IMG/VR virus record: IMGVR_UViG_3300021495_000006
Coordinates: 1-55,626 of that record
Reading direction: 5' to 3' (one strand)
Source: a virus
Taxonomy: Duplodnaviria > Caudoviricetes
Length of the DNA stretch: 55,626 nt
The number at the start of each line of letters is the position of its first letter. Position 1 is the stretch's first letter. Under the pieces are notes generated by a model. It had not been told where the DNA came from and did not search any database. It saw only the letters and a list, made by a program, of their open reading frames with translations. Shown in pieces: positions 3,335-52,883 of the stretch. The position numbers and the translations under genes were made by a program.

Positions 3335-3361
3335 AATCCTTCTGCTTTTTACCCAATATTA

Positions 3362-36985: not shown

Positions 36986-37549
36986 TCACTCCTTAATCGC
37001 CTCCACATAAAGCGATTGCTCTTGGTGGTAGTCCTGCGTTTCGGCCTGCATCACTGGTGAATGGCTTTCACCCGGTCGCATGGGCACAATCCGCTTGAAC
37101 CCAGCCATCTCTAGCGCCTGCTTCAAGCCATCCCAAGTATAGGCATGTTGGTGACCTGTATACTCTTCACGCCCCGAAAGCGCCCCGAACAATATGCAGG
37201 CCAGCTTATTGTCCTCGTTCAATTGCTGGTAGATGGGGGGCTGGCAATGGGCAAAGTCGCCCATCTCACGGCGCACCCATTTTTCCAGCAACAGCCCAAA
37301 GTCGGGAACAGCAAGCCGCATTACCGCCCCGCGCTTCATCACCCGATGGCATTCCCGTAAGAAACGCAAGGCCTCAATGATGTTCAAATGCTCCAAGAAA
37401 TGAGAGGCATAGATAAGGTCCACACTGTTGTCGGGATAGGGCAATCCCCAGCGCACATCCCGCAGGATGATGCCGGGCCCCGGCTCTTTATCTATGTTGT
37501 GCCACCCTGGGAAGGTGTAGGGCCCACAGCCAATGTTAAGCTTTATCAT
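36986..37549 (-). CDS. Class I SAM-dependent methyltransferase
   Basis: KLNIGCG, IYASHFLEH, RVMKRGA. Confidence 0.85.
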   Translation of the reverse strand: MIKLNIGCGPYTFPGWHNIDKEPGPGIILRDVRWGLPYPDNSVDLIYASHFLEHLNIIEALRFLRECHRVMKRGAVMRLAVPDFGLLLEKWVRREMGDFAHCQPPIYQQLNEDNKLACILFGALSGREEYTGHQHAYTWDGLKQALEMAGFKRIVPMRPGESHSPVMQAETQDYHQEQSLYVEAIKE

Positions 37550-40500
37550 AATCTTCCCACTCTCTTAACCACTCCTCGGCCACACCCTCCCAACTGAAGT
37601 TGGGAGCATAAGCTTTGCCCTTGGCCGCCCACTTCTTGCGGAAAGCCGCATTGGCCAGCAGGCTTACAGCAAAGCCGATAAACATCTGCTGATACCGCCC
37701 GCTGGCCACATAGCCCGGCACCAGGATACCCCTATCCCCCACCGTCTCCGGCAAAGCCCCGCAGGTTGACGTAAGAATCGCCAAGCCCGCCGCCATTGCC
37801 TCCATTGCGGTGATACAGTTGTGGATGACCACACCACCGGCCACAAAGTTGTGTGTGCCCTCGACTTCCATGTTGTAAACGTCTTCATACCCATAAAAGG
37901 ACACAGAAGCCACGCGGTGATTGGCTTGTTGGATTTTCCTACGGGCCAGGCGCGCACATTCCCGCGAACAATATTTGGCCGTTTCCAATCTGTACAGTTG
38001 TACTTCAAACTCTTTGCCACAATATTGGCAATGCAATTTAACTCTTTTGCGGCGAGTCCGCCCCCTACGAAAGACAAACTCCCGCCGCTCCTCCTCGGTC
38101 ATGGAATTCCACAGCGCATGGCCCGCTATCGAGGCACGGCGGCGTTTCTCTTCAGGTGTCAGGCTAGCCCACCATTGTTCAAACCTCGCCTTTCGTTGCT
38201 TCACGCTGATTTTGCTTGGCGGGCGTTGATTGGCAAACGTTTTCTTGGCATGGGCCGAGGGGCTAAGTGCTTGTAGGTTCCCAACCTCATTATTGAAAGC
38301 ATTGCCATCAATGTGGTCTATGTGATAACCCTTAGGTATTGTCCCGTGCGCCCACTCGTACACTAAACGATGCTCATGCTTCCAAGGGCCCTCACCCGTT
38401 CCTACCTCTACGGATATACGTTTTTTAAGACTAACAACTCGGTCGCCAACAGCCAATTGGCTAATAGGCACCCATCCCCGCTCATAAGTCAAAACAAGGT
38501 GATCGGGTGTAGCCTTGAGGCAAGTGCCATCATCCCATTCAACCTTCCAAACTTCGGCTCGGCTACGGGTTTTCTTGACCCATTTGACCGTGCTCAATAC
38601 AAAGGTGCCTGTCTGTTCGTCATAAGACCACACGGGGAATTCGCTGCGCCCCACCAACTCCTTAATAGGCACGCCAAGAGGATATTTGCTGTAGTCTCGC
38701 GGCATGTCAATGAGAGTATCACCTGTGCAACATGATACCTCCAGGAAGGCAGTCGGATAGAACCAGCACCCTGCCGATAGGAATTCGAGAGCTAGTTCGT
38801 CCTGATTCACCCGCCCATGCCAGACGACATTGGGCGTTGCCTCAATCTGTTTCTCCACTTTCTGCTTAAACTCACGCAGTTGGGGCACTTTTTCGATGTT
38901 TTGCCAGCCATAGTAAAGGTGCAGTTCGGCGTCTGGCACAGCCCTTAAGATGACCGGCCACATTGCCAAAAGGTAATCCAACCCCCGGTCGGGGCTTGAG
39001 GCATAGACCACTTTATGCGGATTGCGCTTTACATCCCGGTCAAAACGGGAGAGGTCAATGCCGTTGCGCGTGGGCTTGAGATTGTTCAAGAAACCATAAC
39101 ACATCTGTAAATAATCCGAGTGCCACTGGGAAACGCCCATGATCCGGTCGAAGAAGTGCCCGCGCTCTGGCGTCATGTTGCCGCCCAGGTGCAAATCATG
39201 CACCCATAGCCACTTGACCTTGCCTCCCGCTTGGGCATCGGCCAGCAGCAATCCAGGAAGCCGCCAGCCTACCAGAAGGTCGGGCTGCATATCCGGCTTA
39301 TACCAGGTGTACGGCCAATAGCCCACCCCTTCGTATTCGCCCGCATATTTACCGCAGTCGTTGAAGACATCCACGTGCCAGCCCGCCTTAGCCAACAGTC
39401 GGGCCATGTGGATAACCGCCGTCTCGCTACCTCCAATGCCGCCCTTATGTAGCGAAGGCGGCCCCCATTCCTCCAAACTCTTCCCGCAATAGAAGACGGC
39501 CCACGGGCTATCGGTTGACCGTTGGCGGAAGGCAGCTTTTGTTACCCTTTTGCGAACTTCTGGCACGTCCATTAACTCTGGCGGGATAGGCGTTTGGAGC
39601 ACCGCTGCATCCGGCGCGCCTTCCCAAAATTTCAGCAGCCCCGCCGCTTTGGTGCGTAACTCCAAGATGTAATCGTAAATCTCCAACTTCTTCTTAAGGT
39701 GCTCCGAGTTGGGCGACACCTTCAAGGCGTCTATCACAATCTGTCTGGCCGTCTCCAAATCGCCAATGTGATAGTAGGCGATGTTGGCGAATAGTGCGGG
39801 ATTATACGTGTAATCCAGGGGATTGGTGAAGATAGCCGCGTCGGGCACTTTGGCCATGCGTCCCAGCTTGTCCCACCAAACGGCCTTCTCATATCGCCCC
39901 ATCCTGGTATAGGCTTCGCTGATCCCGAAGTAAGGATCGGCCCAGTCGGGAAAAAGGACGATGGCCTCTAGGTTTTTTTCAATGCATCTTCGGTAGTCCC
40001 CCAAGAGGCAGTAGCAGTCCGCCAGGAAATGAAGGGCTTGCCATCTCTCCTCCAGCGCGGATTCCAAGCGCAGGTAACGCTCATACCACAAAGCCGCGTT
40101 CTCCCAATCGCGGAGCGCATAATACTGATGCGCAATATAACACAGTGTACGCTTATCGTTAGGATTCTCTTCATAATCCATCTCCAGAAGCTTGAGATTG
40201 CGCTCCGGGTATCCGCGTCCAGTGGGGCTACGATGTAGCACCACAATGTCGGCACTACGGGCGAATTTGGTCGGCCCCAAGGCCTTTAACCCCTCATGCA
40301 CCCGCCGAATCCACGTCCACCCTATGCTCCGTTTAACGGCCCTCTCCCTGGTGAGGATGGTGATACAATTGCCGTTGTCGTCGAAACCATAGAAATAGGC
40401 CAGAAGCAAGCAGCCATAGCCTTGCTTGTCCAGCTTTTCAATAAGCGGTCGCAGCTCTTCGGCATTGTCCAATACGTCGTCAGCGTCCAGCCAGAAAGCC

Positions 40501-40781
40501 CAATCGGTGGTCAGTTTTTTGTAGACTTCATTGCGTGCTTGAGCGAAGCTGGCAATGCATTCGCCATAGTCCTCGAATTGGAATTTAGGCAGCCATGTCA
40601 GGTCAACGGCTTCGCCGCCGAATTCCTCCACTATTTGGCGTGTCTCGCCTTCCCAGCCCTCTTTGCTGGTGATGCCGACAACAATCTGGTCAAACTTGAC
40701 TGGCTTAACGCTCTCCAAACAAGCTCGCAAACTCTCGGTCTCGTTGCGGCAAATAAGATGTAGCCCGATTGTAACAGACAT
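37536..40781 (-). CDS. GT2-TPR-GT4 multidomain glycosyltransferase containing an intein
   Basis: FAQARN and WLDADD (GT-A), TPR helices, GGSETA/SSPDRGL (GT-B), intein in the EVS|CITAME motif. Confidence 0.9.
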   Translation of the reverse strand: MSVTIGLHLICRNETESLRACLESVKPVKFDQIVVGITSKEGWEGETRQIVEEFGGEAVDLTWLPKFQFEDYGECIASFAQARNEVYKKLTTDWAFWLDADDVLDNAEELRPLIEKLDKQGYGCLLLAYFYGFDDNGNCITILTRERAVKRSIGWTWIRRVHEGLKALGPTKFARSADIVVLHRSPTGRGYPERNLKLLEMDYEENPNDKRTLCYIAHQYYALRDWENAALWYERYLRLESALEERWQALHFLADCYCLLGDYRRCIEKNLEAIVLFPDWADPYFGISEAYTRMGRYEKAVWWDKLGRMAKVPDAAIFTNPLDYTYNPALFANIAYYHIGDLETARQIVIDALKVSPNSEHLKKKLEIYDYILELRTKAAGLLKFWEGAPDAAVLQTPIPPELMDVPEVRKRVTKAAFRQRSTDSPWAVFYCGKSLEEWGPPSLHKGGIGGSETAVIHMARLLAKAGWHVDVFNDCGKYAGEYEGVGYWPYTWYKPDMQPDLLVGWRLPGLLLADAQAGGKVKWLWVHDLHLGGNMTPERGHFFDRIMGVSQWHSDYLQMCYGFLNNLKPTRNGIDLSRFDRDVKRNPHKVVYASSPDRGLDYLLAMWPVILRAVPDAELHLYYGWQNIEKVPQLREFKQKVEKQIEATPNVVWHGRVNQDELALEFLSAGCWFYPTAFLEVSCCTGDTLIDMPRDYSKYPLGVPIKELVGRSEFPVWSYDEQTGTFVLSTVKWVKKTRSRAEVWKVEWDDGTCLKATPDHLVLTYERGWVPISQLAVGDRVVSLKKRISVEVGTGEGPWKHEHRLVYEWAHGTIPKGYHIDHIDGNAFNNEVGNLQALSPSAHAKKTFANQRPPSKISVKQRKARFEQWWASLTPEEKRRRASIAGHALWNSMTEEERREFVFRRGRTRRKRVKLHCQYCGKEFEVQLYRLETAKYCSRECARLARRKIQQANHRVASVSFYGYEDVYNMEVEGTHNFVAGGVVIHNCITAMEAMAAGLAILTSTCGALPETVGDRGILVPGYVASGRYQQMFIGFAVSLLANAAFRKKWAAKGKAYAPNFSWEGVAEEWLREWEDYDKA
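37818..38732 (-). mobile_element. Intein (305 aa) with HNH endonuclease
   Basis: N-terminal CCTGDT, ATPDH block B, C-terminal HNFVAGGVVIHN|C; internal HEHRLVY..IDHIDGN..NN..NL and a CxxC...CSREC finger. Confidence 0.92.
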
Positions 40782-40792
40782 ATTCCTCCTTT

Positions 40793-41296
40793 TCAGAATA
40801 GCGCCCCCGTTGCTCCCCGGCTGTAATATTGGATAACGCGGTCACGCTCCTGCCGGGCCTTCTTGATTTCCTCCAACATCCCAGCAATGATGCCCGGCAC
40901 TTCCGTGGGGGTATTGGCTGGGATGTGAAAGTGAAAGCCCTGCCAGCCGATGTCCTCATCCCGGTCACTCGTCACTACCACCGTCCCGCTCTCTTTCAGG
41001 AGCTTGCGGAAATACGTTTCGCGGTCGGCAATTTCCTTCTCAATCTCTGCCTCCCGCCTTTTGCGCTCCGCCTCAAGCCTGGCCTGATACTTGGCCTCAT
41101 ATTCAGCCTCAAGCTCGGCCCTAAGCTCCTGCTTGATGCGCTCGATTAGACTACGCTCGATTAGACTACGCCCCTCCAACTTCTTATCCCAGCGGGTGAC
41201 GGTGCTGGGATGGACACCCAACTGCTCGGCAAACCACTTCTTGGGCTTGTCAGGATGCTTCTCTCTCAGCTCCAGATATTGCTGGAACTTGTCCAT
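40793..41296 (-). CDS. Post-capsid protein with N-terminal HTH
   Basis: FAEQLGVHPSTVTRW HTH; C-terminal G..F.IP....EVP pattern. Confidence 0.6.
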   Translation of the reverse strand: MDKFQQYLELREKHPDKPKKWFAEQLGVHPSTVTRWDKKLEGRSLIERSLIERIKQELRAELEAEYEAKYQARLEAERKRREAEIEKEIADRETYFRKLLKESGTVVVTSDRDEDIGWQGFHFHIPANTPTEVPGIIAGMLEEIKKARQERDRVIQYYSRGATGALF

Positions 41297-41509: not shown

Positions 41510-44500
41510 TTAGGCAGCCTGCTTCTGGGTGGTGACGTGCTCCAGACGCACGATCGCGTTCTGATCCAAGATGACACAGGCGTGAGCCAATCTGTTACTT
41601 TTGTGACCATCCCTGCGGGATGGCGGGTGGTCATTTCTGCCACCTCTGCACGTTCATTTCCGTGCAGTTCGGACTATGCCATCACTCTTACGAGTGCGCC
41701 GTCTCTAGTCTCTACACACGCCCACACTCCCCCACAGGAGTGCTGCTTGGCTCGGCGTCGCCATCTCAGGTTTCCGCCGAATTTACGGCGTTTTACAAGG
41801 CCAACTCCGTCAGCCTTCCATCCATGCACCCAATACTGTGCCAACGGATCAGTCTTCGTCGGCGTCGCGGGCACGAAGTACGTCTGAGCCGCCATAGCAT
41901 CCAACTCGGTAATTCCGTAGGCATTCTTGCCGATGAAGAGGGTGCCGTATACGTCCGCTCCCGAAAGGCCCAAGCTGGCGTAAATCTTGGCGTTGGAGGT
42001 CACGACAAATTTGACCCCCAAGTAGTCTCCGATTTCGCCAGTGAACAAGGGGTTGTTGGGCCCACGCGGAGCAGCCCGCTGGAACGCCTCGTTGATGTCA
42101 TCATCGGCAAACATATCCGCCTCGGTGTCGGGATGGATGCAATCTGTTACTTGCATGACCCCATCATTACCCTACCATTACGATGGGGCGGGCAGGCATG
42201 TCTGCCTACCTCTGCGCCTTCCACATTAGGTTATACGCGCAGTTCGGACTGTCGCACCATCTCCGCAATGGAGAGCCCCTCGCTCAGTCTCTACACCCCG
42301 GCCCATGCGGGCCGTTGGCTCGCGGTAACCCACCTCTGGGTGTCCCCCGAATTCAGAGAGGTTTTTCATGCAACCTCACGGCTGCATGGCACCATGCCGA
42401 TGCAAATATACTTCCCATCCACTACCGGCTGGATGTTGTTCCTCTTCAAGGTCTTGACGGCTCGACGGATTTCGGCTGCCGTCAGGAGCATGCCGCTGCC
42501 CACCTGGCCACGCGAACCGGCTGTGGAGGCATACAAGACGTTAGAGCCCGATTGAAGGACCTCACGGTCAATAATATCCAGGGTGAGGCCCATCTGTTCT
42601 GATCTGTTACTTGATGACCTTGGAACATTAATGTTCCAAGGCGGGCGGTCATTTCTGCCGCCTCTGCATGTCGCCATGCAGTCCGGACTCTCCCTTCATT
42701 GCGCCCTATAGGGCGCAATGCCCCCCGTCGAGTCTCTACACCTTCCCGATACGAATACCGGGCTTGGCTCGCGGTTGTCTCAAAGAGACTTTCCCCGAAT
42801 TTGAGGGGTTTACCCTGGGCGAACAGTTCACCCATGAGCTCCGCAGTCTCGGCCAGCACGTTGTCAATCGCCTGCGTCTCCACAAGGTCGCTACCACGGA
42901 TGTAATCCAATCTGTTACTTTGGTGACCACACTATTAGAGTGTGGCGGGTGGTCATTTCTGCCACCTCTGCATGTTTCCATGCAGTTCAGGCCGTCGCTT
43001 CATCCTCTCGGATGCCGTCTCGCTCGGTCGTTGCGGCTGCTCCTACGGCGTTGAGCTTCCGCATCTTATGATACAGCTCCTCACGCCGTAGTAGCTCCCT
43101 CTGTTTTACCTCCTCGGATTGATTACGCCTGTCCACATAGTTGAGAATAAAATCCAGGAGGATTTCGGCTTGGGGCCTTTTCACTCGTAAGTAGGGCAAC
43201 ACCAAACACAACGCCCGGAATACACACCTACGCCCACTTACGACCCAGCGGTAAATTGGCCTTCGGCCATCAGAGGGAGCGCGCTCTATGCGGACACTAC
43301 CGCCCAAGTGTTTGGCCAACAAGTCTATTGGCTCTTTGTCCACCATGCCCACGCTTATGTAAGTAGTGTATCGAGTATCCTTAACGTGGAACTTGGGGTT
43401 GGGCTTCATCTTACAGATTCTAAGCGTGCCTTCGCCGTCTAGAATCCCCGCCAAGTATCCGTATAGAGCCGCTTGCCTCGGGTCATCATGCAGGATTGCC
43501 ATTGCAATCTCCTGTTTAGACTTTCCCGGTATTCAGAGACGGTTTTACTACGGCAATTCCCATTACCGTACTGGCTGATCGTCACAGTGACAGCGGTCAT
43601 GCTCAAGTTGCTGCCTGAAGGGGGCGTGCCCTCAGTCAGGGCAGTCGTCGCAGCAGCAAGAGACTTGAACTTCCTGAACTCAATGCTCTTGCCCGCGCCT
43701 TTTGGGATATTGCGCTTCTGCGCAAACTGCCCGTGAACCAGATTCATGTTTGTTACTCTACCCCCCCCGCTAGTGTGGGGGATAGGGCCTGGTCATTTCT
43801 GCCAGGCTCTGCATGTCGCCATGCAGATCAGACTATTTCATGCTCTCCGCCTTTAATCGTATCGGCTGAGAGCCTCGCCGTATAGTCGTTGAGAGCGCGA
43901 TCTTGGGTTGCTTGGCAGGCAATTGCCGGAATCGCTCCAAAAAGCTCATTTCCTTGGCGATTTCTTCCTCGGTTCGTGCCTTGTGGGGCAAGCGGCGACC
44001 ATGCCAATCACGCTCCCAGTCTCTATCATTGAACCGGCTGGCCTGCTTCCACTCCGCAAATTCGAGGATTAATTCAGCTCGCGGCTTCTTGCAGGTCAAG
44101 TATGGCAAAACAATCCTCAGCAATCGCACAACAGAGTTAATGCGACACACTGTGATTGCCACGGAATCATGCCAATGTTCCCGGCCCTTTTTCCCTTGGT
44201 GGCGGTTGAGCGTGTAGTAATAATGCACTCCCCACCGGGAATAAATCTCACTTAGGCGGCGTAACAGGCTAAACTCCGTGCTTGTCACAGAGATTTTAAT
44301 GCCAAGCGATTGTGTGCCATTGCCCTTATTCCTGACCTCATATAAGCCGCATGAGCCTTCGCCATCCAAAATGCCTGCCACCCATCCGACCTCGATTGGG
44401 TCGGGATCGCGTCTGCTAGTTGTCTCCACCATGGGTCTTTTCCTCCTTTGGGGCCAACGGATACACGAGACTTTCTAGCATAAGGCGAGTTTGCAATTAG

Positions 44501-44899
44501 CGGTCACCCGCTAATGGCCCTATATAGCTAAGGCAAGGCACGCTCAAGCAGCTTTTTGTCGTAATCCTGCTGTTACCCCATCCTGAAGGATGTGGCTTGG
44601 TCATTTCTGCCAAGCTCTGCAACTTCACTTCGTTGCAGTACGGACTGTGGCTTACCCCTATGCCGTCGCACAGGGCCCCCCGCTCAGTCTCTACCGCTGC
44701 CCGCCACATTCTGTGTAACGATAGTGCCCTTTCCGGTAATCATCGTGACACAAAATGTGCTGCTTGCCTCGGCGTGACCATCTCAGGCTTCCGCCGAATT
44801 CAGGGGGGTTTGACGCCTGCATTACTGCAAGCGGACGCATCACGTATACGTCTTCGCTTCTAGCGTGAGGGTAGACGCCAAAGTCTCGATATTAGCCAT
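41510..44899 (-). CDS. Major capsid protein (N4-gp56-like), 7 exons: 44899-44848, 44565-44531, 43744-43565, 42907-42830, 42599-42400, 42139-41812, 41587-41510; 316 aa spliced
   Basis: Joined exons total 951 nt in one frame: ...KTYYDKKLLERALPNLVHGQF...IEFRKF...LTEG...QYGDYI...LMGEQMGLTLD...YICIIHPD...GEIG...DPLAQ...GWKAAHACVIL...*; follows the scaffold gene. Confidence 0.92.
41588..41811 (-). mobile_element. Group I intron 6 of capsid gene (224 nt)
   Basis: P1 AAGGCU/GGCCUU, P3 CGCCGU/ACGGCG, P7 GACUA/UAGUC, terminal G. Confidence 0.9.
42140..42399 (-). mobile_element. Group I intron 5 of capsid gene (260 nt)
   Basis: P1 GCAU/GUGC, P10 AUG/CAU, P7 GACUG/CAGUC, terminal G. Confidence 0.9.
42600..42829 (-). 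mobile_element. Group I intron 4 of capsid gene (230 nt, apparent terminal A)
   Basis: P1 UGGGU/GCCCA, 6-bp P10 CUGUUC/GAACAG, P7 GACUC/GAGUC. Confidence 0.85.
42908..43564 (-). mobile_element. Group I intron 3 of capsid gene (657 nt, with endonuclease)
   Basis: P1 UACGGU/GCCGUA, P3 CCGUCUC/GAGACGG, P7 GACCG/CGGCC, terminal G. Confidence 0.9.
42987..43502 (-). CDS. Intron-encoded single-motif LAGLIDADG homing endonuclease
   Basis: YLAGILDGEGT motif, PYLRVKRPQA. Confidence 0.9.
   Translation of the reverse strand: MAILHDDPRQAALYGYLAGILDGEGTLRICKMKPNPKFHVKDTRYTTYISVGMVDKEPIDLLAKHLGGSVRIERAPSDGRRPIYRWVVSGRRCVFRALCLVLPYLRVKRPQAEILLDFILNYVDRRNQSEEVKQRELLRREELYHKMRKLNAVGAAATTERDGIREDEATA
43745..44530 (-). 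mobile_element. Group I intron 2 of capsid gene (786 nt, with endonuclease)
   Basis: P1 GCCU/GGGC, P4 UGCUAG/CUAGCA, P7 GACUA/UAGUC, terminal G. Confidence 0.9.
43833..44432 (-). CDS. Intron-encoded single-motif LAGLIDADG homing endonuclease
   Basis: WVAGILDGEGS motif, PYLTCKK; own AGGAGG RBS. Confidence 0.9.
   Translation of the reverse strand: MVETTSRRDPDPIEVGWVAGILDGEGSCGLYEVRNKGNGTQSLGIKISVTSTEFSLLRRLSEIYSRWGVHYYYTLNRHQGKKGREHWHDSVAITVCRINSVVRLLRIVLPYLTCKKPRAELILEFAEWKQASRFNDRDWERDWHGRRLPHKARTEEEIAKEMSFLERFRQLPAKQPKIALSTTIRRGSQPIRLKAESMK
44566..44847 (-). mobile_element. Group I intron 1 of capsid gene (282 nt, no ORF)
   Basis: P1 GACGU/GCGUC with U.G, P10 GUGAU/AUUAC, P7 GACUG/CAGUC, terminal G. 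Confidence 0.9.
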
Positions 44900-44923: not shown

Positions 44924-45781
44924 TTAAATGCGCCCCAATTCCATCATTGCGATCCGCTGGGCGGCCTCTTTCGCCGGAAGTTTGTGCTTCTTCATGTACT
45001 GCTTTGTCTTCTCGATGAGACGCCCCAACTCATCCGGCTTGACCTTCTCCAGCTTCCGCAACAACTCCTCGGCTATGATTGACTCGTCACTGAAGGGCCG
45101 CAGCGTAGCCCAATCGAAGGGCGCTGCTGCCATGCCCTGCGTGCCGCCAACCACATCGAGGGCGCCCGCTTCTTTGAGGCGCGTTAACTGCTCGCGCTTT
45201 TCTGCGCGTTTCTTGGCCGTGGTCGCCTTCGCTAAATCTTCTCTCACAATGCGCGCAACAGAGGATAGGAAGGCTTCCGGGCTGGATTCGTCCAAGCGGG
45301 GATCGTAGCGGTTCACTCCGAATTCTTTGCAAACGCTCTTGATATACTCTTCCCGCTGCCTCTCCGCTTCCATTTGCGCCCGGTACGCGCGCAACTCCTC
45401 CAACTCCTGCATTAAGGTCGCACGCTCCGAAACCTCCCGCGTCTGTCGCCGCACAGCCTCCAACTCCTCCGGTTCGAGGTGCTCGGCCAACAGCGCCTCG
45501 TAGTATTGCTGAAGGCTCTCTAGTTGGCTCTTCACGGCCTGTTGGGTGCGGGCAACATCTCGGTCTATCTTGGCCTGGGCGCGCCGGAAGGCTCTCTCTT
45601 CAGCCTCCCTAATCGCCGCCGCTTTTGCCTCCTCGATTAGACGCAAGATGTCTTCGGGTAACTCTTTCTTCTCCTCTTCTTGTGCCTCCTCGCTCGGTGC
45701 TAGCTCTTCCTGCTTTGGCTCCTCGACAACCTCATCAGGATTGTCTTGGTTCGCGTCCAAGCGGGTCTTCTCCTCATCCAT
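44924..45781 (-). CDS. Capsid scaffolding protein
   Basis: Acidic N-terminus, coiled coil, directly upstream of the capsid gene. Confidence 0.75.
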   Translation of the reverse strand: MDEEKTRLDANQDNPDEVVEEPKQEELAPSEEAQEEEKKELPEDILRLIEEAKAAAIREAEERAFRRAQAKIDRDVARTQQAVKSQLESLQQYYEALLAEHLEPEELEAVRRQTREVSERATLMQELEELRAYRAQMEAERQREEYIKSVCKEFGVNRYDPRLDESSPEAFLSSVARIVREDLAKATTAKKRAEKREQLTRLKEAGALDVVGGTQGMAAAPFDWATLRPFSDESIIAEELLRKLEKVKPDELGRLIEKTKQYMKKHKLPAKEAAQRIAMMELGRI

Positions 45782-45815: not shown

Positions 45816-48800
45816 TTACCATCGCCTATACCAGCGCAACTTAGGCGCTCTCCGCACCCGCCTGCGCTTGGGCTCTGTAAGCGCCAGGTGCGCCGCCAGG
45901 CTTTGGGCTAATGCCGCAAGCCATTCCGGTGATTTGTCTTGTAGCCAGGCCGCCAAATCGGGATACCGCCGCAAGAACCATCCTCTCTGCGCTTCGGGCA
46001 AAAGAAGATAGCTCTGTATCAGCTCCAAAAGCCCCTTATCCTCCATGCCCTCGGCGAATTTCCACCAATCGGTGGCCATATCCTCCAATGTCTCACGCTT
46101 CGTCTTGCGGCGTCTGCGGCCCCGCCTCCGCTTTGGCTTCGGTGTATACGGCTGCCATGTCGGGTAGAGCCACTTGACCATCACCGGATGACTGGCTTTC
46201 CATTCGTCCATGAAGCGCCAGGCCGGTTCCAATTGCTCACGCAGGGCCTTGCGTTTGTTGAACTCCCACCATTTCAGCTTAGAATAGGCGTCCATCAACT
46301 CGGAGTAATTGGGGACGATGGAACGCACGGCCTCCCACATTTCGGCCCGTTCACGCAAGGCCTGGTCGTATTCCGCCGCCAGCTCCGGTGATACGCGCTG
46401 GAACCGTCCACTTGGGGCTTGCAACCCCGCTTCCGTCAAGGCCGCGCCCGGCCAGGGCTTGGGTTCATAAGCGCCCCATTCCTTCAGGAATTCCGCCTCC
46501 GCAGCCTTGACTGCCGCGCCCCTGGCCTCTGCCATCTCAGGCAATAAGCCAGGGTCAAGCCCGGCATAGTTGAGCCAGTATATCAGCTCTTCATCGGTGA
46601 TGGCGTCGTAATCCCGCGTCTTCTTGTTGACAAAGAGCCTCTGGAAGCGGTCGCCCAGCGCCTTCTTCAAGCGCCTCTTATCCAGCGCGGGCAAGGCCAT
46701 GTAGAACTCCCACAGGTCGCTGATGGCCCTATCCCTTGGGCTCATGCCCCGGCGCCGGACTTCTTTAAGCCCCGGCAGGGTGATGTCCCGATAAATCTCC
46801 GCAAGCTGGTCGTATGTCCAGCCCTTCTCTGGATACATCGCCAGCACACGGGTGATGAATTCGGTGGCGGGCCGAGCCGGATAATTTGAATAATATTTAT
46901 CAAATAACTCGGCCCGCTCCGCCCCGCTCAAGCCCTCGGCCTCCGCAAACATGGCCTTCTGAGCAGGGTTGATGACCGTCTCTTTGTAAACTCGCCACAG
47001 GGCCTCTTTGGGGTCATCGTTGCGGCGCAGATAACGCTCCAAGCGCGCACGGGTGAGCCAGGATAGTTGCGGTATCTTGCCCTTAATGCCCATTTCCCGC
47101 AACGCGCTCTTATCGAGATAGGGCAGCCACTTCTTGGGATTGTTCAGGAACTCATCGCGCGCCCGGTAGAAGGCATCCCAATCAATCTTGCCCTCTTTGT
47201 CCTTAAATTGCTCTGGCTGAATGGCATAGTAGGCTTCAGCAACCGGCCGCAATGCTTTGTCTTCATAGTAGGTTTCGATCTCGCTGGGCGTCCAGCCCCA
47301 GAACGAGGGCGTGCGCACTATGTCTTTGTATTCATCATCAAGTGCATCTAACTCTTCCTGCCGCTTGCGGTATATCGTCTGCCGAGCACGCCAATCGCCC
47401 AATGGGACTTTATCCAAGTCTTTGGCATAGCGGTCATAAATGGCCCTGCGCTTGTCGTAGTATTCGCGCTCCCTGAATTGCACCACCCGTTCGGGGCCAG
47501 GCGTCCAGAGCAAGCCCCGGCTTGTATACCACGGATTGGCCTCATACCACTTCCGCCTGGCCTCTCGAATCTCCGGCCCCTTTTCCCCGGCTCGCTCTCG
47601 CTCGTAAATCTCCGCCAAGCCCTCTGCACGCCGGATGCGCATTTCGCCCTTCGGTAGCAACCTGGGCCGAATGCCTAGAAAATAGGATACCGCCGTTGGG
47701 AGTTGTTTTAAGATAGCCGCCCGATTAACCGCCTCCTCCCATATTGGCCCCTGGTGATACATTGGACTGGCCGGGTTCAAGACGGCATCGCGCTCCTCCG
47801 GTGTGATCTCCTCATTGGCCGCCATGTCCAATACCATGCTCTCCGGCCAGTATTCTGCTTCATAGCCCGCCGCTTCCGGCAGGCCCAAGCCCACACGGAA
47901 GGGCTTTTCGATGTTCAATCCGCCGGGCGGGATCCAACCGAAGCGCTCCGGCCACTTCTCCCGCATGTAAGCGGTCATGCCCTTCAACACGCCCGTCTGT
48001 GGGAGAATATACCAAATATTCTCCCGCTTGCCCCGCGCCATATCCAAGGCCACCTGTAGCGGCCAATGCGGAGCCATGCCGAAGATGTGTTGCAAGTCAG
48101 CCAGCCTGTCCAAAGCAGTCTTGGCCTCATTGTTATCGTCCCAATCCACTTTGGCCAAGTAATTGAACGGCCAGACTCCCACGTGGGGAAAGATGAAGGG
48201 CATGATGTCAATAGGGACGCGCTTCTCTGCCCATTCCGGTAAAGCTTCGGCCACACCCTCAGGCGCAGGCACAAAGAGGGCCGTCGGCCCGTAGCGCCTG
48301 GGGAAGCCCATCTCCTCATTGATGCGCTCGATAGCCTTGCGCATACGGTAATAGCTTGTGACCGTCCAGGGCTTGGTAATCATACGCATGGCCGCCTGAT
48401 AGCCGGTGCGTGTAGGCCAGAAATGGAACGGGAAGAATAAAGCGATTAGACGGTCAAGCTCATAGCGCTTGTCATAATCGTAAAGAGCCCGGTTGACGAC
48501 CTCATAGGCCCATTGCAATTTAGCCATGTTCGCGTCTTCCCTGGCAGGCACAAGCACCTGCTTCACCCTATCCAGGAAGACACGCTTTAGCTCTTCGACC
48601 ACCGGCTCTGCTTTATCGCGGGTGATGCCCTTCTTCAGGCGTTCGATAAGCTTTAGCTCTGCCTCACTTGCCGACCGCACGCCCTTGGCATAGCTGGGCA
48701 TCCCACTGGTCATGGCAGCCGCGCGGGATAGCGCTCGTGTGGCAATGCGCTCATAATCCTTCGCCGTGCTGCCTTTGAACCGCTTGGCCTGCTTCCGAGC

Positions 48801-51800
48801 CCATTCTGCAAAGTCGCCCAGCCACTTGACGTATTCATCCGGCGGCTCTGCCTTGCTGATGTCGGTGACCGGAACACTGAACGCCCGGCCCTTCTCTGGG
48901 TCGTATACCCATGTGAGCACAGCGCCCGAACGAACGCGCGCTGTCCTAGCTGCAATGCCATCCCCTTTCGGCGTATGCACCCAATCAGCCGGCTGCACGC
49001 CGCCAGGTAGAATCTTGGGCGGGGCCTTGGGCTTGGCTACTTTCGGTGCCTTCGGCTTCGGCGCTTTCTCTATTGCCTTGGCCGCCTCCGCCTCTGCCTT
49101 GAGCACTTCATCAAATTCCTCAAGCGGCGCTTCAGCAATCGGCTTCAGTTCATCCCACCAACCCTGGGCCTTTGCCAACTTCTCGATGTCATCTAATTCC
49201 GCTTGGACAGCAGCCCGCCTAATGGGGGAGGCGTTCACCCGTGTGAGACCGGCCAATAGCTTTTTCCGGCTCTTATAGCGGTTAAGATCGCCCTCCCACC
49301 TCTTCGGCTTAGTGACCTTCGGCGGCGCAGCGGCTTCCTCTACAAGTTTCGGCTCCCCCACAATCTCCCAGCCGGACGGCCTGGCGAATTCACGCAGTTC
49401 ATCCCACCAGCCCTCGGCCCTAGCCCTTTCAGCAATTTCGTCCAGCCTTGCACGGATACGCCCCGTCTCGCTCTCAGGATAGCCCCGGTCAATGTAGTCT
49501 CGTAACTGGCGTATCAGCCGCTTATACTCCGCCACCTCATCGGCGTGGACGACCTCCATCGCCTTCTTCATGCCCAGCTTAGCACGCAAGGCATTGGCCT
49601 CGGCGCGTAAGTCCTTCTCTAGCTTGGGGGCTATGGCACGGCCCAATCGCTTCTGCTCATCCAGGAAATTCTCGATGGTCTCCAGCCGCTTGCGAGCCTC
49701 GTTCTTGGTCATCTTAGCCACACGTTCGGCCATAGTGGTGGGCTTCTCCGCTACCTTGGCGACTTCTGGAACCGCCTCAACTGCGGCCTCCTCCACCCTC
49801 GCCGCTTCAACGGCCTCGGCCACTTCTTCGGCCTTGGGGATAATCTTCTCACCTTCCTCCACCGCTTCCTTCGGCAATGAGGCCAACTCCGCCTTCAGCG
49901 CCTTGATGCGGCCCTTGAGCTCTTTGACCTTCTTGTGGGCGTCTACATAATCCCGAACGGCCTGGAGCAAATCCTCTTGGGAACGGAAGCCCAGCTCGGT
50001 GGCCATATCATCGGTAACCGCATACTCCCACGAGACTAACTTGCCCGTGGCCCTGTCACGCACACGCTTGAAGGTGCCCGTGTGATAGTCCCACAGCTTG
50101 AAGACCGTCTTCTGATCCAAGGGCTGGGCCTTGAGGTAATCCTGCAACGATTCCAGATATTGCTCCGTCTGGTAAAGTTCGGCCTGGAGATCCGCCGCCT
50201 TCTCCGCCGCCGTCTCGACCTCTTTGATGGCCTTCGGCGCTTTTTCGACCACGCCCTCAAGGGCAGGATGACCGCTCAATAGCTGATAGGTGGGCGTATT
50301 GGCTTCGGCCATCTTTGCCCATAGGTAATCCTGCCACTTCTTGGCCAATTCCGGCTGCTCCTCGATGAACCGCCGTAGCTCCGTGAGTTTCGTTGGGAAG
50401 GGAATGTCGGGGCTGACGTGCTTGGCCCAAGCGCGCCGGGCATATTCGCCCTTCTTCCACATATCGAGCTCATAGGCGGCCTTCGCCATCTCGTCGGCGC
50501 TCATCCACAAGCCTTCAGCCGTCGCCCCGCGTTCGGTCATCTCGCGCACCATCGTGGCGTAGGTGCGCTTGACAATCTCCTCTGGCTTGCCTTTACGGAA
50601 TTCCTCCGCCGCCTCGATGCCCGGAAGCAACGCCGCCTCTTTGGGCTTCACCGTGACGGGCAGGTTCTCCAGTTGCTCAGCCCGAGCCAGTCGCTTCTCA
50701 ATCTCCGCCGCGACTTCATCCACGCCTTTGGCCAACTTCTCGGCATCATCCCCGGCTTCATCCACGACTTCCTGAATGGCCTTGACGAAGCCAGGCGAAA
50801 CCTCCTCGGCATCGTCAATATAGCGAGCCACCAAGGTGAGGCCACTTAAGGCCTTCTCGGTGTTCTCGATAAGCTCCTCGCCATTGAGGGATTGTCTCCA
50901 CGCTGCAATCAGGTTGGCCTTAGTGTTGGGATCAATATAAGGCCACAGGTCATCAAAGGCCGAGAGGTCAATCAGCCCACCCGGGCGCCAATAGAGATCG
51001 TCGAATTTCTGGCAGGCCCGATAGGATGCCCCATACCGCGCCCAGGCCTCGCCCAGCAGCGGTATGTTGCCGCTGTAAAGGCGTCGGCCCAGGTCGGCCA
51101 ATTCCCGGATGATGGGCAATCCCCGCTTAGGCCCTCTATACTCCCGCGTCAAGCCCAAGCCGCGCTGAAACTGCGCCGGGCTGAAGCCAAACGAGCGAAT
51201 CATGTAATCGTCAATATGATTATGCGAAGCGAAGGACAGCAACCCGTCATACGTCAGAAAACTCACATTGCCCGCCGCATTCCTGATAAGGGCCCTGGGA
51301 GAGATGCCCATGTAGAAGTCGGCCATAAAGCTCTTAAAGCCCTGGGCATACTTCTCCGCCGTGCTGGGCGGCTTCACACCATAAAGCTCGTTAGTCACCT
51401 TGATGGACTTGTCATAAAGCTCGCTCAGAAAGTCCATCAGCTTGAACTCACGGTCGGGCTTCAGCGTGCGGAAGCTGTCAATGTCCATCATCTTGAGCGC
51501 CTTCCGCACCTCATTGGCCGCCGGGGATTTGACGAACGAGCCGAATTCGGGTGGCAAGCTCTCCGGGGCCTCCACAAAGCTCTTGAGCAAAATCTTGGCT
51601 TCATCCGGTGTCTTGGCACGCCGCAGCACCAATCCTGTGAAACTGTTAAGGTGCCTATCCAACGCCCTGGCCTTGCTGTGTGCAGTGATGCGGAAGGGGT
51701 TAAGCTGCTCGATCTTGCCCCCGATCTGCTGCCATGCCCGCTTGAACCAGGGCATTTGCTCCACCGTCTCTTGGACGATAGGCTCTGCCTTGCGAACGAA

Positions 51801-52883
51801 CTGATTGCGCACCCGATTCAACAGGCGCACATCGCGGAGCTTGCCCAGCCAACTGCCTGCTATGTCGAGCGGGTCGAGCACAATCTGGCCAATGGCTTCG
51901 ACAATTGGGTCTTCATACTTCCGCACTACTTCGTCAATGGACGCGCCCTGTTTAATTTCATCGAGTGCCTTCTCCAACCGTTCGGGATGGGCGCCCCAGG
52001 TGTAGTAGGTGCGCGCCAGCTCCGCCGTCTCCTTGGGTGGCAGATTAAGCTCCCGCAGCTTTTCATCGGCCCGACGCCAGGCTTCAACTTGTTCGGGCTT
52101 TATCTCCACGCCGCCCAATAGGGCTGCCGCCTCCAGATGTGTCATCGGGTGCTCAGGCACCACGCGCTCATAGGCGGCTTTTGGACGGCGCTTCATAGCC
52201 TCCAATGCATAGGTGCCAATGCCGCGCTCTAACCAATAGGCCGGTTGCTGCAATGCTTTGACAGCTCCCTTAACGGCCTCCTCCGCCGTGCGGGGGATGA
52301 TACCAGCTATCGGTTGGCGCTTCCAGGCCCGCCAAGCCTCCAATGCTCCAGCCAAAGGCGCAGTCACAACCTCGGGTGCAGGCTTCCCGATGGCCTCCAC
52401 TGTGGTAGGCGGCAAGAAAGGCCGCTCCGCGAGTTGCTGCTTAATGGTCTCCACCGCCTCGCGTGTGCCTTCCGGCTTCTCCACCGTCGGCGGTGGAACC
52501 TCAATCCTAGGCGGTGCAGCTTTCACGGCCACGGGAGGAGGAGGCGTCACCACTTCCGGTTTAGGCCATTCCTTAAGCGGCATGGGGAAATATGGACGAC
52601 GCCTTTTGCGCTCGAATTCCTCTTCGGCCCTCTCCACGCCACGCTCTACCTTGGGGGCTTCCGCCGCCCTTCGCCAGGCCTCCATCCCTGCAATCTGCCG
52701 CTGCCATGCTTCGGCGGGCACTTCTTCCGGTGGTGTCCAACCCTTGGCACGCAGGGCCGAACCCTCAACGCCCGGCTTCCACACCACCTTATAACCCGCC
52801 CGCCGCCATTGCTCCTCAACAGGCAGGTTGAACCAATCCTCTCTATTCCCTTGTCCTGTCCCGATGTTAATGGTGACCGCCAA
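45816..52883 (-). CDS. Giant (2355 aa) helical protein, probable internal virion/ejection protein
   Basis: Size, helical composition, FFPFHFWP-type motif, location in the head module. Confidence 0.6.
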   Translation of the reverse strand: MAVTINIGTGQGNREDWFNLPVEEQWRRAGYKVVWKPGVEGSALRAKGWTPPEEVPAEAWQRQIAGMEAWRRAAEAPKVERGVERAEEEFERKRRRPYFPMPLKEWPKPEVVTPPPPVAVKAAPPRIEVPPPTVEKPEGTREAVETIKQQLAERPFLPPTTVEAIGKPAPEVVTAPLAGALEAWRAWKRQPIAGIIPRTAEEAVKGAVKALQQPAYWLERGIGTYALEAMKRRPKAAYERVVPEHPMTHLEAAALLGGVEIKPEQVEAWRRADEKLRELNLPPKETAELARTYYTWGAHPERLEKALDEIKQGASIDEVVRKYEDPIVEAIGQIVLDPLDIAGSWLGKLRDVRLLNRVRNQFVRKAEPIVQETVEQMPWFKRAWQQIGGKIEQLNPFRITAHSKARALDRHLNSFTGLVLRRAKTPDEAKILLKSFVEAPESLPPEFGSFVKSPAANEVRKALKMMDIDSFRTLKPDREFKLMDFLSELYDKSIKVTNELYGVKPPSTAEKYAQGFKSFMADFYMGISPRALIRNAAGNVSFLTYDGLLSFASHNHIDDYMIRSFGFSPAQFQRGLGLTREYRGPKRGLPIIRELADLGRRLYSGNIPLLGEAWARYGASYRACQKFDDLYWRPGGLIDLSAFDDLWPYIDPNTKANLIAAWRQSLNGEELIENTEKALSGLTLVARYIDDAEEVSPGFVKAIQEVVDEAGDDAEKLAKGVDEVAAEIEKRLARAEQLENLPVTVKPKEAALLPGIEAAEEFRKGKPEEIVKRTYATMVREMTERGATAEGLWMSADEMAKAAYELDMWKKGEYARRAWAKHVSPDIPFPTKLTELRRFIEEQPELAKKWQDYLWAKMAEANTPTYQLLSGHPALEGVVEKAPKAIKEVETAAEKAADLQAELYQTEQYLESLQDYLKAQPLDQKTVFKLWDYHTGTFKRVRDRATGKLVSWEYAVTDDMATELGFRSQEDLLQAVRDYVDAHKKVKELKGRIKALKAELASLPKEAVEEGEKIIPKAEEVAEAVEAARVEEAAVEAVPEVAKVAEKPTTMAERVAKMTKNEARKRLETIENFLDEQKRLGRAIAPKLEKDLRAEANALRAKLGMKKAMEVVHADEVAEYKRLIRQLRDYIDRGYPESETGRIRARLDEIAERARAEGWWDELREFARPSGWEIVGEPKLVEEAAAPPKVTKPKRWEGDLNRYKSRKKLLAGLTRVNASPIRRAAVQAELDDIEKLAKAQGWWDELKPIAEAPLEEFDEVLKAEAEAAKAIEKAPKPKAPKVAKPKAPPKILPGGVQPADWVHTPKGDGIAARTARVRSGAVLTWVYDPEKGRAFSVPVTDISKAEPPDEYVKWLGDFAEWARKQAKRFKGSTAKDYERIATRALSRAAAMTSGMPSYAKGVRSASEAELKLIERLKKGITRDKAEPVVEELKRVFLDRVKQVLVPAREDANMAKLQWAYEVVNRALYDYDKRYELDRLIALFFPFHFWPTRTGYQAAMRMITKPWTVTSYYRMRKAIERINEEMGFPRRYGPTALFVPAPEGVAEALPEWAEKRVPIDIMPFIFPHVGVWPFNYLAKVDWDDNNEAKTALDRLADLQHIFGMAPHWPLQVALDMARGKRENIWYILPQTGVLKGMTAYMREKWPERFGWIPPGGLNIEKPFRVGLGLPEAAGYEAEYWPESMVLDMAANEEITPEERDAVLNPASPMYHQGPIWEEAVNRAAILKQLPTAVSYFLGIRPRLLPKGEMRIRRAEGLAEIYERERAGEKGPEIREARRKWYEANPWYTSRGLLWTPGPERVVQFREREYYDKRRAIYDRYAKDLDKVPLGDWRARQTIYRKRQEELDALDDEYKDIVRTPSFWGWTPSEIETYYEDKALRPVAEAYYAIQPEQFKDKEGKIDWDAFYRARDEFLNNPKKWLPYLDKSALREMGIKGKIPQLSWLTRARLERYLRRNDDPKEALWRVYKETVINPAQKAMFAEAEGLSGAERAELFDKYYSNYPARPATEFITRVLAMYPEKGWTYDQLAEIYRDITLPGLKEVRRRGMSPRDRAISDLWEFYMALPALDKRRLKKALGDRFQRLFVNKKTRDYDAITDEELIYWLNYAGLDPGLLPEMAEARGAAVKAAEAEFLKEWGAYEPKPWPGAALTEAGLQAPSGRFQRVSPELAAEYDQALRERAEMWEAVRSIVPNYSELMDAYSKLKWWEFNKRKALREQLEPAWRFMDEWKASHPVMVKWLYPTWQPYTPKPKRRRGRRRRKTKRETLEDMATDWWKFAEGMEDKGLLELIQSYLLLPEAQRGWFLRRYPDLAAWLQDKSPEWLAALAQSLAAHLALTEPKRRRVRRAPKLRWYRRW

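Follow-up and report, generated by a model that had tools for sequence, protein, structure and literature searches.

Six group I introns of one family in a predicted N4-gp56-type major capsid gene of an uncultured phage

The minus-strand locus 44899..41510 of the window (the whole stretch of DNA that was analysed, 55,626 nt) is best explained as encoding the major capsid protein (N4-gp56 family, HK97-type) of an uncultured phage of ~55 kb. Six group I introns, all of the same family, are predicted to be removed from its transcript by splicing, leaving an mRNA for a 316-aa protein. A probability of about 0.88 was assigned to this explanation as a whole, which was drawn from DNA sequence; the splicing itself, and its autocatalytic nature, are accordingly worded as predictions throughout. 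The division into seven exons and six group I introns proposed in the initial annotation was borne out by colinearity of the protein, matches to RNA models, covariation and intron-less DNA alleles.

Locus layout and identity of the joined product

The gene comprises a 951-nt coding sequence (sum of the seven exons) and six inserts, and extends from the start ATG (44899-44897) to the stop TAA (41512-41510) on the minus strand. Introns account for 2439 of 3390 nt (72%). A GAGG-rich ribosome-binding stretch is located 5' of exon 1. The features are as follows, in gene order:

44848..44899, minus strand: exon 1, 52 nt; ATG at 44899; N-terminus aligns with homologs
44566..44847, minus strand: intron 1, 282 nt; no ORF; P2 hairpin; terminal G
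44531..44565, minus strand: exon 2, 35 nt; homolog alignment and profile
43745..44530, minus strand: intron 2, 786 nt; endonuclease ORF; terminal G
43833..44432, minus strand: ORF of intron 2, 199 aa, LAGLIDADG-type; phrog_5046, E 2.2e-13
43565..43744, minus strand: exon 3, 180 nt; phrog_1357 positions 49-115
42908..43564, minus strand: intron 3, 657 nt; endonuclease ORF; terminal G
42987..43502, minus strand: ORF of intron 3, 171 aa, single-motif LAGLIDADG homing endonuclease; phrog_5046, E 4.6e-24
42830..42907, minus strand: exon 4, 78 nt; homolog alignment and profile
42600..42829, minus strand: intron 4, 230 nt; no ORF; last base A42600 in the frame-preserving register
42400..42599, minus strand: exon 5, 200 nt; phrog_1357 positions 141-213
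42140..42399, minus strand: intron 5, 260 nt; no ORF; terminal G
41812..42139, minus strand: exon 6, 328 nt; phrog_1357 positions 214-334; TIGR04387, 57.7 bits
41588..41811, minus strand: intron 6, 224 nt; no ORF; terminal G
41510..41587, minus strand: exon 7, 78 nt including the TAA stop; homolog alignment and profile

The insert lengths given in the initial annotation (282, 786, 657, 230, 260 and 224 nt for introns 1-6) were reproduced exactly, and computation likewise returned the exons of 35 and 52 nt, the 316-aa product and the intron share of about 72%. ORF lists contained fragments of the gene only, in agreement with the statement that gene callers miss it. A PHROG search with ten other large ORFs of the 55,626-nt window gave few informative matches.

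When joined, the exons, which are intact and conserved, encode a 316-aa protein without internal stops. Gap-free alignment with intron-less capsid homologs, as anticipated earlier, was found over residues 10-316 for four of the nine homologs tested (P0004, P0007, P0005 and P0003; 63-67% identity). A profile built from the nine homologs matched the joined product with 503.8 bits over profile positions 2-315 of 315, and the exon pieces were colinear on phrog_1357 ('major head protein'; positions 49-115, 141-213 and 214-334 of 356). Against TIGR04387 ('N4-gp56 family major capsid protein'; cut-off 60 bits), exon 6 alone scored 57.7 bits (positions 190-305), and the intron-less homolog P0004 (67% identical) scored 222.9 bits (positions 2-322 of 324). 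These HMM scores for the joined product and for P0004 support the proposed N4-gp56-like identity. Among 20 database proteins, exon 6 showed 67-72% identity to the top 11 and 40-58% to the other nine.

Intron family, core structure and splice sites

Based on sequence and RNA models, all six inserts were assigned to one widespread group I intron family. In a scan with RF00028 (curated cut-off, i.e. gathering score, 50 bits), intron 4 was above the cut-off (65.4 bits), introns 6 (31.5 bits, E 2.1e-5) and 2 (27.1 bits, E 4.7e-4) were below it, and introns 1, 3 and 5 had no Rfam match at E<=10; the group I model scan proposed at the outset thus recognised one insert clearly and two below threshold, and left three unmatched. 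A covariance model (R1) was trained on introns 1, 4, 5 and 6 and one intron from a related capsid locus (L003). Searched against both strands of all 55,626 bases, R1 returned exactly six matches, all of them inside the capsid gene. Two are independent of the training set, namely intron 3 (54.1 bits, E 1.4e-15) and intron 2 (47.9 bits, E 1.1e-13); the training members 1, 4, 5 and 6 scored 149.6, 159.8, 130.9 and 160 bits, respectively.

The P3/P4/P5/P7/P8/P9 core was found in all six introns, so that the P3/P7 core described for the inserts was confirmed as a set of conserved core helices with covariation. P3 is formed by 44489-44484 paired with 43879-43874 in intron 2, and by 43542-43536 paired with 43021-43015 in intron 3. 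In an alignment of five sequences, 90.9% of cells were paired, compared with 31-44% when partners were slid, and compensatory changes were counted in 18 pairs compared with 2-7. For 113 distinct family members, the corresponding values were 92.5% and 33-46%, with double changes in 31 of 33 pairs; the 122-sequence alignment behind these pairing counts had been fitted to the model and inflates them. P7 is invariant across the four ORF-less introns (1, 4, 5 and 6) and is kept through compensatory changes in introns 2 and 3 (alignments judged by eye), with one A-C mismatch in intron 3. P9.0 covaries (G-C in intron 4, A-U in introns 5 and 6).

Introns 2 and 3 encode LAGLIDADG homing endonucleases resembling I-CreI and I-MsoI, for which cleavage activity is predicted. 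In a phmmer comparison with solved structures, residues 14-125 of the intron 3 ORF matched I-MsoI with E 1.5e-13 and I-CreI with E 1.7e-3. The intron 2 ORF scored 16.8 bits against Pfam LAGLIDADG_3 (below the cut-off of 22.5) and was related to the intron 3 ORF by BLASTP (E 1e-7, 27% identity). Its reading frame opens within P5-region sequence, and its termination codon falls in the 3' strand of P7. For the intron 3 ORF, the start lies in a P5-region hairpin; after crossing P7, P3' and P8, this frame reaches the 3' strand of P7. This overlap of P7-P3'-P8 in both introns, together with the P7 mismatch of intron 3, could hinder folding.

A U before the intron and its G partner were present at all six 5' splice sites, in P1 helices of 4-6 bp, as had been described, with the helix of intron 2 at chance level. 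P10, reported for five introns and as unclear for intron 2, measured 6, 0-1, 4, 6, 3 and 4 bp in introns 1-6, i.e. 3-6 bp in five of them and none visible in intron 2. P1 and P10 are, respectively, GACGU/GCGUC and AUUACG/CGUGAU in intron 1 (11 bp in total), UACGGU/GCCGUA and GAUU/AAUU in intron 3 (10 bp), UGGGU/GCCCA and GAACAG/CUGUUC in intron 4, GCAU/GUGC and CAU/AUG (weak) in intron 5 (7 bp) and AAGGCU/GGCCUU and GCUC/GAGU in intron 6. In shuffled exon ends, the sum of P1 and P10 was reached or beaten in 0/2000 cases for intron 1, 16/2000 for intron 3, 17/2000 for intron 4 and 54/2000 for intron 6. The helices of intron 5 were weak by this measure (461/2000), and those of intron 2 were at chance level (1320/2000).

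A terminal G is present in five of the six introns. In the only register that preserves the frame, the last base of intron 4 is A42600, with AUGGGU before and GAACAG after the intron; this junction agrees with the homologs, with P1/P10 and with the DNA alleles that lack the intron, and the 3' junction is placed where the frame needs it by 5 bp of P1, 6 bp of P10 and the covarying P9.0. The intron terminates in ..GAUCA, its paralogs in ..GAUUG and an intron at the same capsid site of another contig (L148) in ..GAACG. Other registers were rejected. A cut after U42834 with G42604 as last base (230 nt, canonical end bases) allows no feasible P1, as the loop would have only 2 nt, changes a Gly that is invariant in 9/9 homologs to Ser, and is contradicted by three intron-less contigs reading M-G-E-Q-M-G. 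A cut after U42830 with terminal G42599 (231 nt) shifts the frame and leaves the mRNA one base short. A one-base slide of the intron would restore a terminal G, at the price of a 5' cut behind a G-C instead of the U-G pair. Among the papers listed in a literature search, none was relevant to natural group I introns lacking a terminal G.

Predicted splicing, intron-less alleles and competing readings

In the mechanism proposed here, a primary transcript of ~3.4 kb would fold into six ribozymes. In each of them the end of the 5' exon would pair with the internal guide sequence (P1, with U-G at the cut site), and an external guanosine would cut at this pair. Pairing of the guide would then switch to the first bases of the downstream exon (P10), the terminal G of the intron would dock in the guanosine pocket of P7 (a G-C pair beside a bulged A), and the exons would be ligated. 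Six such events would give the mRNA for the 316-aa capsid protein. No RNA run was found to contain the locus.

It is unlikely, at the level of a serious minority view, that these are group I introns of which some need a helper (a LAGLIDADG maturase or a host factor), or that little or no intact capsid is made. LAGLIDADG proteins can act as maturases. The ORFs overlap the cores of introns 2 and 3, P1/P10 of intron 2 are at chance level, and intron 4 has no in-frame terminal G; since its P7 is unchanged, the terminal A is not accommodated. P1, P10 and P9.0 of intron 4 nevertheless place its 3' junction at the in-frame position, and the interrupted allele is the only one in the probable source run, at ~44x depth, which argues for viability.

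Little credence was given to the idea that the introns are a regulatory 'timer' on capsid production rather than purely selfish passengers. Six serial splicings might plausibly slow or lower the output of the most abundant late protein, but related populations are without introns at five of the six sites, and two of the introns carry homing endonucleases, a hallmark of selfish spread. Intron-less alleles of sites 2-6 were found in DNA contigs of other metagenome runs (sites 2, 3 and 5 in run X4, site 4 in X2 and X4, site 6 in X4 and X3). The contigs without introns encode the predicted junction peptides ALP-NLV, QYG-DYI, MG-EQMG, YICI-IHPD and WKA-AHA (first or only hyphen at the exon junction). 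Among 80 related capsid loci, 77 were uninterrupted, one (L003) had a single intron and two were unresolved. Intron-less alleles and uninterrupted loci together indicate that the introns are dispensable.

Still less probable is a chimera of the assembly, in which strains with fewer introns were merged into a maximal haplotype via shared 30-nt repeats. Exact repeats are indeed common to the introns, an independent assembly of the probable source run breaks at two of them (41621-41650 and 42943-42972), and strains of the other runs differ in intron complement. Depth in the probable source run, however, was flat (43-44) across the locus, two of its contigs with equal depth (43.4 and 44.1) represented the full locus with 0 differences, and no intron-less joint was seen in this run over the whole locus. 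Exons 4-6, without which the gene would not be intact, lie on the 1,352-nt contig between the repeats. Pieces of run X3 matched the locus with 0 differences (five pieces) or 1 difference (one piece) and link introns across exons: intron 1-exon 2-intron 2 in one contig and intron 3-exon 4-intron 4 in another, both with 0 differences.

Inteins, insertion sequences, group II introns or a decayed pseudogene can be dismissed, although standard ORF lists give fragments only: the inserts shift the frame and contain stops and are therefore not inteins, they match group I models and no other Rfam family, and the exons read through intact and conserved.

Origin of the introns, known systems and meaning

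Introns of the same family were also met in other contigs. Clusters of 4-7 family matches occur in other viral contigs (seven in L092; six in L187, with three introns placed inside a phrog_9953 head gene), and four such clusters adjoin pieces of major-head genes. Same-family introns are present at the same or neighbouring sites in related and unrelated capsid genes, and a search with the conserved P9/P9.1 motif recovered no fewer than 119 stretches of the family from viruses and no fewer than 120 from bacteria. Core identity among the six introns is 67-74%, no higher than to introns of other contigs. In a FastTree tree of 122 tips (short alignment, without support values, intron 2 left out), the common ancestor node of the locus introns spans 53 tips. 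With these core identities and this node, intragenic duplication was not favoured as their origin; since the six resemble each other no more than they resemble introns of other phages, they look like separate acquisitions rather than a recent duplication within the gene. When phages co-infect a cell, the endonucleases of introns 2 and 3 probably drive these introns into capsid alleles that lack them. For the four ORF-less introns, co-conversion may be the route of spread; alternatively, their endonuclease genes may have been lost. The suggestion that the gene is a homing hotspot was partly supported, namely by the two endonuclease introns, the variable presence at five of six sites and the same-family introns in other capsid genes.

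Group I introns are found in td, nrdB and nrdD of phage T4 and in orf142 of Staphylococcus phage Twort (three introns). To our knowledge, these T4 and Twort genes have at most three introns per gene. The background of one to three introns per phage gene, against which the locus was initially set, is out of date: clusters of the same family are present in other viral contigs, and a crAss-like capsid gene in five fragments has been published (Yutin et al. 2021, PMC7886860). The six-intron capsid gene is therefore extreme but not unique, as multi-intron phage capsid genes were already described there (PMC7886860).

In that report, the capsid gene of the zeta-group crAss-like phage OLRF01000054 has five fragments and four spacers, three of which were recognised via intron-typical protein domains (PMC7886860). 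Both are metagenomic phage capsid genes split by group I introns and missed by standard annotation, whereas the present gene has seven exons and six introns, four of them ORF-less, which were recognised by RNA structure, belongs to an N4-gp56-type, ~55-kb lineage with another environment label, and has exons down to 35 nt (PMC7886860). Mycobacteriophage LittleE (Cluster J) is described as having one 819-bp capsid intron, whose HNH endonuclease is encoded on the other strand; its splicing and protein were verified experimentally, and a capsid intron of lactococcal phage Tuc2009 is cited in the same source (PMC3706429). It shares with the present locus a capsid group I intron with a homing endonuclease and an insert delimited by an intron-less relative, and differs in that here six introns and LAGLIDADG genes are present and splicing is predicted from DNA (PMC3706429). 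For the major capsid gene of Faustovirus E12, 13 exons down to 13 bp, introns with a mean length of 1,273 bp and, among these, five group I introns, two of which have endonuclease ORFs, are given (PMC6247863). That gene is likewise a many-intron virus capsid gene with short exons and endonuclease ORFs, but of an amoeba giant virus with mixed intron types, in contrast to the bacteriophage, single intron family and compact 3.4-kb locus found here (PMC6247863). Jug jumbo phages are reported to carry ~18.5 ORF-less group I introns of ~206 nt per 360-400-kb genome, with essential genes such as terL in 2-3 pieces (PMC12880540). Small ORF-less group I introns split essential genes in both cases; they are scattered in Jug phages, whereas all six detectable introns are located in one 951-nt coding sequence here (PMC12880540).

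A bolder reading is regarded as doubtful: that this is the most intron-dense phage protein gene seen so far, that capsid genes are invaded repeatedly and serve as a homing arena, and that intron 4 ligates after a terminal A with an ordinary guanosine pocket. If true, six introns within 951 coding nt would reflect several separate invasions by one widespread family, this family would have entered capsid genes time and again across unrelated phages, frequently in clusters, and capsid genes would be a main battleground of introns and endonucleases when phages co-infect. The lack of a terminal G in intron 4 departs from a near-universal rule in a way that can be tested: either the intron is spliced all the same, or a defective one is put up with by the phage.

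ORF callers are blind to such capsid genes, likewise in the cluster contigs L161, L187, L129 and L188, and genomes of this kind will be missed or wrongly scored by capsid-based classification of phages and estimates of completeness. The P9/P9.1 motif offers an easy handle for retrieving the intron family. With six related ribozymes per transcript, natural intron-less alleles at five sites and two endonuclease genes overlapping the ribozyme core, the locus would provide a compact study system, suited to work on homing, co-conversion, splicing order and what the intron load costs a late gene whose expression is very high.

Exon structure of the capsid gene

The window is a whole IMG/VR virus record of 55,626 bases, with nearly all genes on the minus strand. 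From 44899 to 41510 only fragments appear in the ORF list, as in the ORF track of the initial annotation. Three minus-strand fragments matched phrog_1357 ('major head protein') in order, at positions 49-115, 141-213 and 214-334 of 356. With the largest exon piece as database query, 20 proteins were retrieved at E <= 0.001, with identities of 67-72% for the top 11 and 40-58% for the other 9; the top 13 were 211-321 aa long.

Exons of the capsid gene
44899-44848, minus strand, exon 1
44565-44531, minus strand, exon 2
43744-43565, minus strand, exon 3
42907-42830, minus strand, exon 4
42599-42400, minus strand, exon 5
42139-41812, minus strand, exon 6
41587-41510, minus strand, exon 7

The seven segments joined to 951 nt and yielded a 316-aa product, which aligned without gaps over residues 10-316 with four of nine homologs (63-67% identity) and with 1-3 small gaps with each of the five more distant ones. 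On a profile of the nine homologs it scored 503.8 bits (positions 2-315 of 315). On NCBIfam model TIGR04387 (cut-off 60; 'N4-gp56 family major capsid protein') the closest homolog, the intron-less protein P0004, reached 222.9 bits and exon 6 by itself 57.7 bits. The insert lengths of the initial annotation (282, 786, 657, 230, 260 and 224 nt) were reproduced exactly, the inserts make up 72% of the locus as it had estimated, and its uninterrupted, N4-gp56-like 316-aa product is supported by alignment and profile score.

Upstream of the capsid gene lie a 2355-aa ORF (45816-52883, minus strand; no Pfam or PHROG match) and, beside it, an acidic, coiled-coil-like 285-aa ORF (44924-45781, minus strand; no family match), which by its position could be a scaffolding protein. 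The ORF just downstream (40793-41296, minus strand) shows a DNA-binding motif of MarR/HTH type (Pfam MarR, 26.4 bits), an unusual neighbour of a capsid gene. It separates the capsid gene from that of a 1081-aa glycosyltransferase/TPR protein (37536-40781, minus strand), two genes downstream, which contains a second kind of selfish insert: an intein (Pfam Intein_splicing, 69.6 bits, residues 704-988) bearing an HNH endonuclease (HNH_3, residues 803-845) within the C-terminal Glycos_transf_1 domain. Two tRNA genes were found at 24379-24449 and 13197-13272 (both minus strand; Rfam RF00005, 64.4 and 33.9 bits). A direct repeat of 133 nt, with a single mismatch at position 7, makes up the two ends of the record (1-133 and 55494-55626), and an assembly made independently from the probable source run joins them. 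At ~55,493 bp the genome, either circular or circularly permuted, is probably complete; IMG/VR classes the record as linear and 71% complete.

Group I identity and predicted splice sites of the inserts

Rfam's single group I model gave 65.4 bits for intron 4 (cut-off 50) and sub-cut-off scores for introns 6 (31.5 bits, E 2e-5) and 2 (27.1 bits, E 5e-4). Introns 1, 3 and 5 had no match at E <= 10, and a scan of the whole window at E <= 0.05 returned no further group I matches elsewhere. The four introns lacking an ORF are clearly paralogous and share long invariant blocks (59% mean column identity). On an alignment of these with one intron from the related viral contig locus L003, helices P3, P4, P5, P7, P8, P9, P9.1, P9.2 and P9.0 were assigned, including the P7 pseudoknot (GAGACU/AGUCC, bulged A) and a GAAA-looped P9.1 hairpin. 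In this five-intron alignment 90.9% of cells pair versus 31-44% with partners slid by 1-3 columns, and 18 pairs show changes on both sides versus 2-7 after sliding.

R1, a covariance model covering the core from P3 to P9.1 and trained on introns 1, 4, 5 and 6 and the L003 intron, matched the window at exactly six places, each within the capsid gene and on its strand. Two of the six, intron 3 (E 1.4e-15) and intron 2 (E 1.1e-13), were outside the training set. Among 122 R1 matches in other contigs (113 distinct), 92.5% of cells pair versus 33-46% when slid, and 31 of 33 pairs show double changes, in both cases on an alignment fitted to the model.

The base before each of the six introns is a U able to pair with a guide-sequence G 7-10 nt inside the intron. 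Splice sites were evaluated by comparing the P1 plus P10 total with 2000 shuffles of the exon ends.

P1 and P10 pairings and number of shuffles reaching the observed total
Intron 1: P1 GACGU/GCGUC; P10 AUUACG/CGUGAU; 0/2000
Intron 2: P1 GCCU/GGGC; P10 none; 1320/2000
Intron 3: P1 UACGGU/GCCGUA; P10 GAUU/AAUU; 16/2000
Intron 4: P1 UGGGU/GCCCA; P10 GAACAG/CUGUUC; 17/2000
Intron 5: P1 GCAU/GUGC; P10 CAU/AUG; 461/2000
Intron 6: P1 AAGGCU/GGCCUU; P10 GCUC/GAGU (one base apart); 54/2000

These counts give clear support to introns 1, 3, 4 and 6 and weak support to intron 5, with intron 2 at the chance level. A P1 with U.G at the 5' splice site, as initially proposed, is thus possible at all six introns (at chance level in intron 2), and the P10 described as unclear in intron 2 was rightly doubted, none being present there. 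Overall, the earlier interpretation of a capsid gene split by six group I introns stands; we infer splicing from DNA.

Five of the six introns end in G, after a common ..GUAACAG.. or ..GUAACAA.. motif. To our knowledge a terminal G is nearly universal in group I introns; a literature search on this point found nothing relevant. Homologs, intron-less alleles and P1/P10 together place intron 4 at 42829-42600 with A as its last base, the junction encoding Gly-Glu in 9/9 homologs and in agreement with the intron-less alleles. The P9.0 pair beside it is G-C in intron 4 but A-U in introns 5 and 6, a covariation that likewise points to 42600 as the terminal position. The guanosine pocket in the P7 of intron 4 is unchanged. 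Intron 4 may splice with a terminal A. Its cut sites may instead be shifted by one base: intron 4 and exon 5 begin with the same four bases, so the insert can be moved to end at G42599, which would put the 5' cut after a G-C pair, not U-G. Finally, intron 4 may be damaged by loss of one base at a former ..CAG/G.. junction. A distantly related capsid gene (~30% identity) in viral locus L148 contains a 288-nt intron of the R1 family (3113-3400, minus strand) at exactly the same codon boundary, after the conserved Gly, and its ends are canonical (boundaries after ..CUCGGU and ..GAACG).

Two ORFs between the capsid fragments matched phrog_5046 and bear LAGLIDADG-type motifs. Residues 14-125 of the intron-3 ORF (171 aa) matched I-MsoI (E 1.5e-13) and I-CreI, and this ORF shares 27% identity (E 1e-7) with the intron-2 ORF (199 aa). 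In each ORF the start codon falls within the P5 region after a Shine-Dalgarno-like AGGAG or AAGGAGG, and a hairpin of 6 bp holds the AUG of the intron-3 ORF in its loop. The two frames cross the P7 5' strand, P3' and P8 and end within the P7 3' strand (UGA at 42989-42987 in intron 3, UAG at 43835-43833 in intron 2). P3 is a perfect 7-bp helix in intron 3 (43542-43536 with 43021-43015) and has 6 bp in intron 2 (44489-44484 with 43879-43874).

Intron-less alleles and related introns

Contigs of four DNA runs, the probable source run and the metagenome runs X2, X3 and X4, were placed on the locus and junctions were read by eye; no RNA run is listed with the locus. Contigs of the probable source run covered the whole locus with 0 differences and a flat depth of 43-44, and no intron-less joint was seen in them. 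X3 pieces (0-1 differences) link intron 1-exon 2-intron 2 and intron 3-exon 4-intron 4. X2 and X4 contain 85-99%-similar relatives whose contigs skip inserts.

Intron-less sites
Site 2: ..A-L-P-N-L-V.. (X4, probably also X2)
Site 3: ..S-Q-Y-G-D-Y-I.. (X4)
Site 4: ..M-G-E-Q-M-G.. (X2 and two X4 contigs)
Site 5: ..G-K-Y-I-C-I-I-H-P-D.. (X4)
Site 6: ..G-W-K-A-A-H-A.. (X4 and X3)

The predicted junctions ALP/NLV and QYG/DYI were thus read in X4 DNA. Precise intron absence leaves the capsid frame intact, and near sites 3 and 5 the intron-less alleles carry clustered synonymous changes relative to the window. For site 1 no intron-less allele was seen among contigs of the four runs. Minor X4 contigs contain intron 3 or intron 6; with the skipped inserts in X2, X4 and X3, this indicates that intron content varies between related populations.

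Among 80 viral loci encoding relatives of the capsid protein (748,041 bases), the capsid match was uninterrupted in 77, shortened in two (L021, and L042, where the contig end was reached) and split by a single insert in L003, the only locus with an R1 match. This 819-nt intron of the same family (6550-7368; Rfam 33.9 bits) is inserted 10 nt downstream from the intron-5 site; its P9 region contains an opposite-strand ORF with a LAGLIDADG-like motif seen by eye only. Judging from where homology ends, locus L149 appears to have an intron 7 nt downstream of the intron-5 site, so that insertions seem to fall at three staggered points in the stretch encoding I-I-H-P-D.

The conserved 19-base P9/P9.1 motif was found in at least 119 viral stretches and at least 120 bacterial-genome stretches (contigs L202-L281) that span many phyla, among them Actinomycetota, Chloroflexota, Acidobacteriota and Planctomycetota. 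At E <= 0.001, R1 gave 181 matches among the 119 viral loci listed, often clustered.

Clusters of R1 matches in viral loci
L092, 3782-7796: 7 matches in ~4 kb; three exon-like pieces without PHROG match
L187, 863-4362: 6 matches; adjoining pieces match phrog_9953
L161, 1694-4024: 5 matches; adjoining pieces match phrog_1357
L129: 5 matches; adjoining pieces match phrog_9953
L154: 5 matches, 4 together and 1 ~3 kb away
L188: 4 matches; adjoining pieces match phrog_1328

All three PHROGs are major head families, and the clusters of L161 and L187 interrupt major head genes, with three of the L187 introns placed inside a phrog_9953 gene. In limited tests, capsid pieces were found in at least 21 of the 119 viral loci listed. 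A quick tree does not place the window introns in one group.

Published cases include the five-fragment capsid gene of a crAss-like phage (PMC7886860), mycobacteriophage LittleE and lactococcal phage Tuc2009 with one capsid intron each (PMC3706429), Jug phages with ~18.5 small group I introns per genome and terL in 2-3 pieces (PMC12880540), and a Faustovirus capsid gene of 13 exons (PMC6247863). Searches of openly accessible main texts turned up no phage gene with six introns. The six-intron capsid gene is an extreme case of a known kind, not a new kind.
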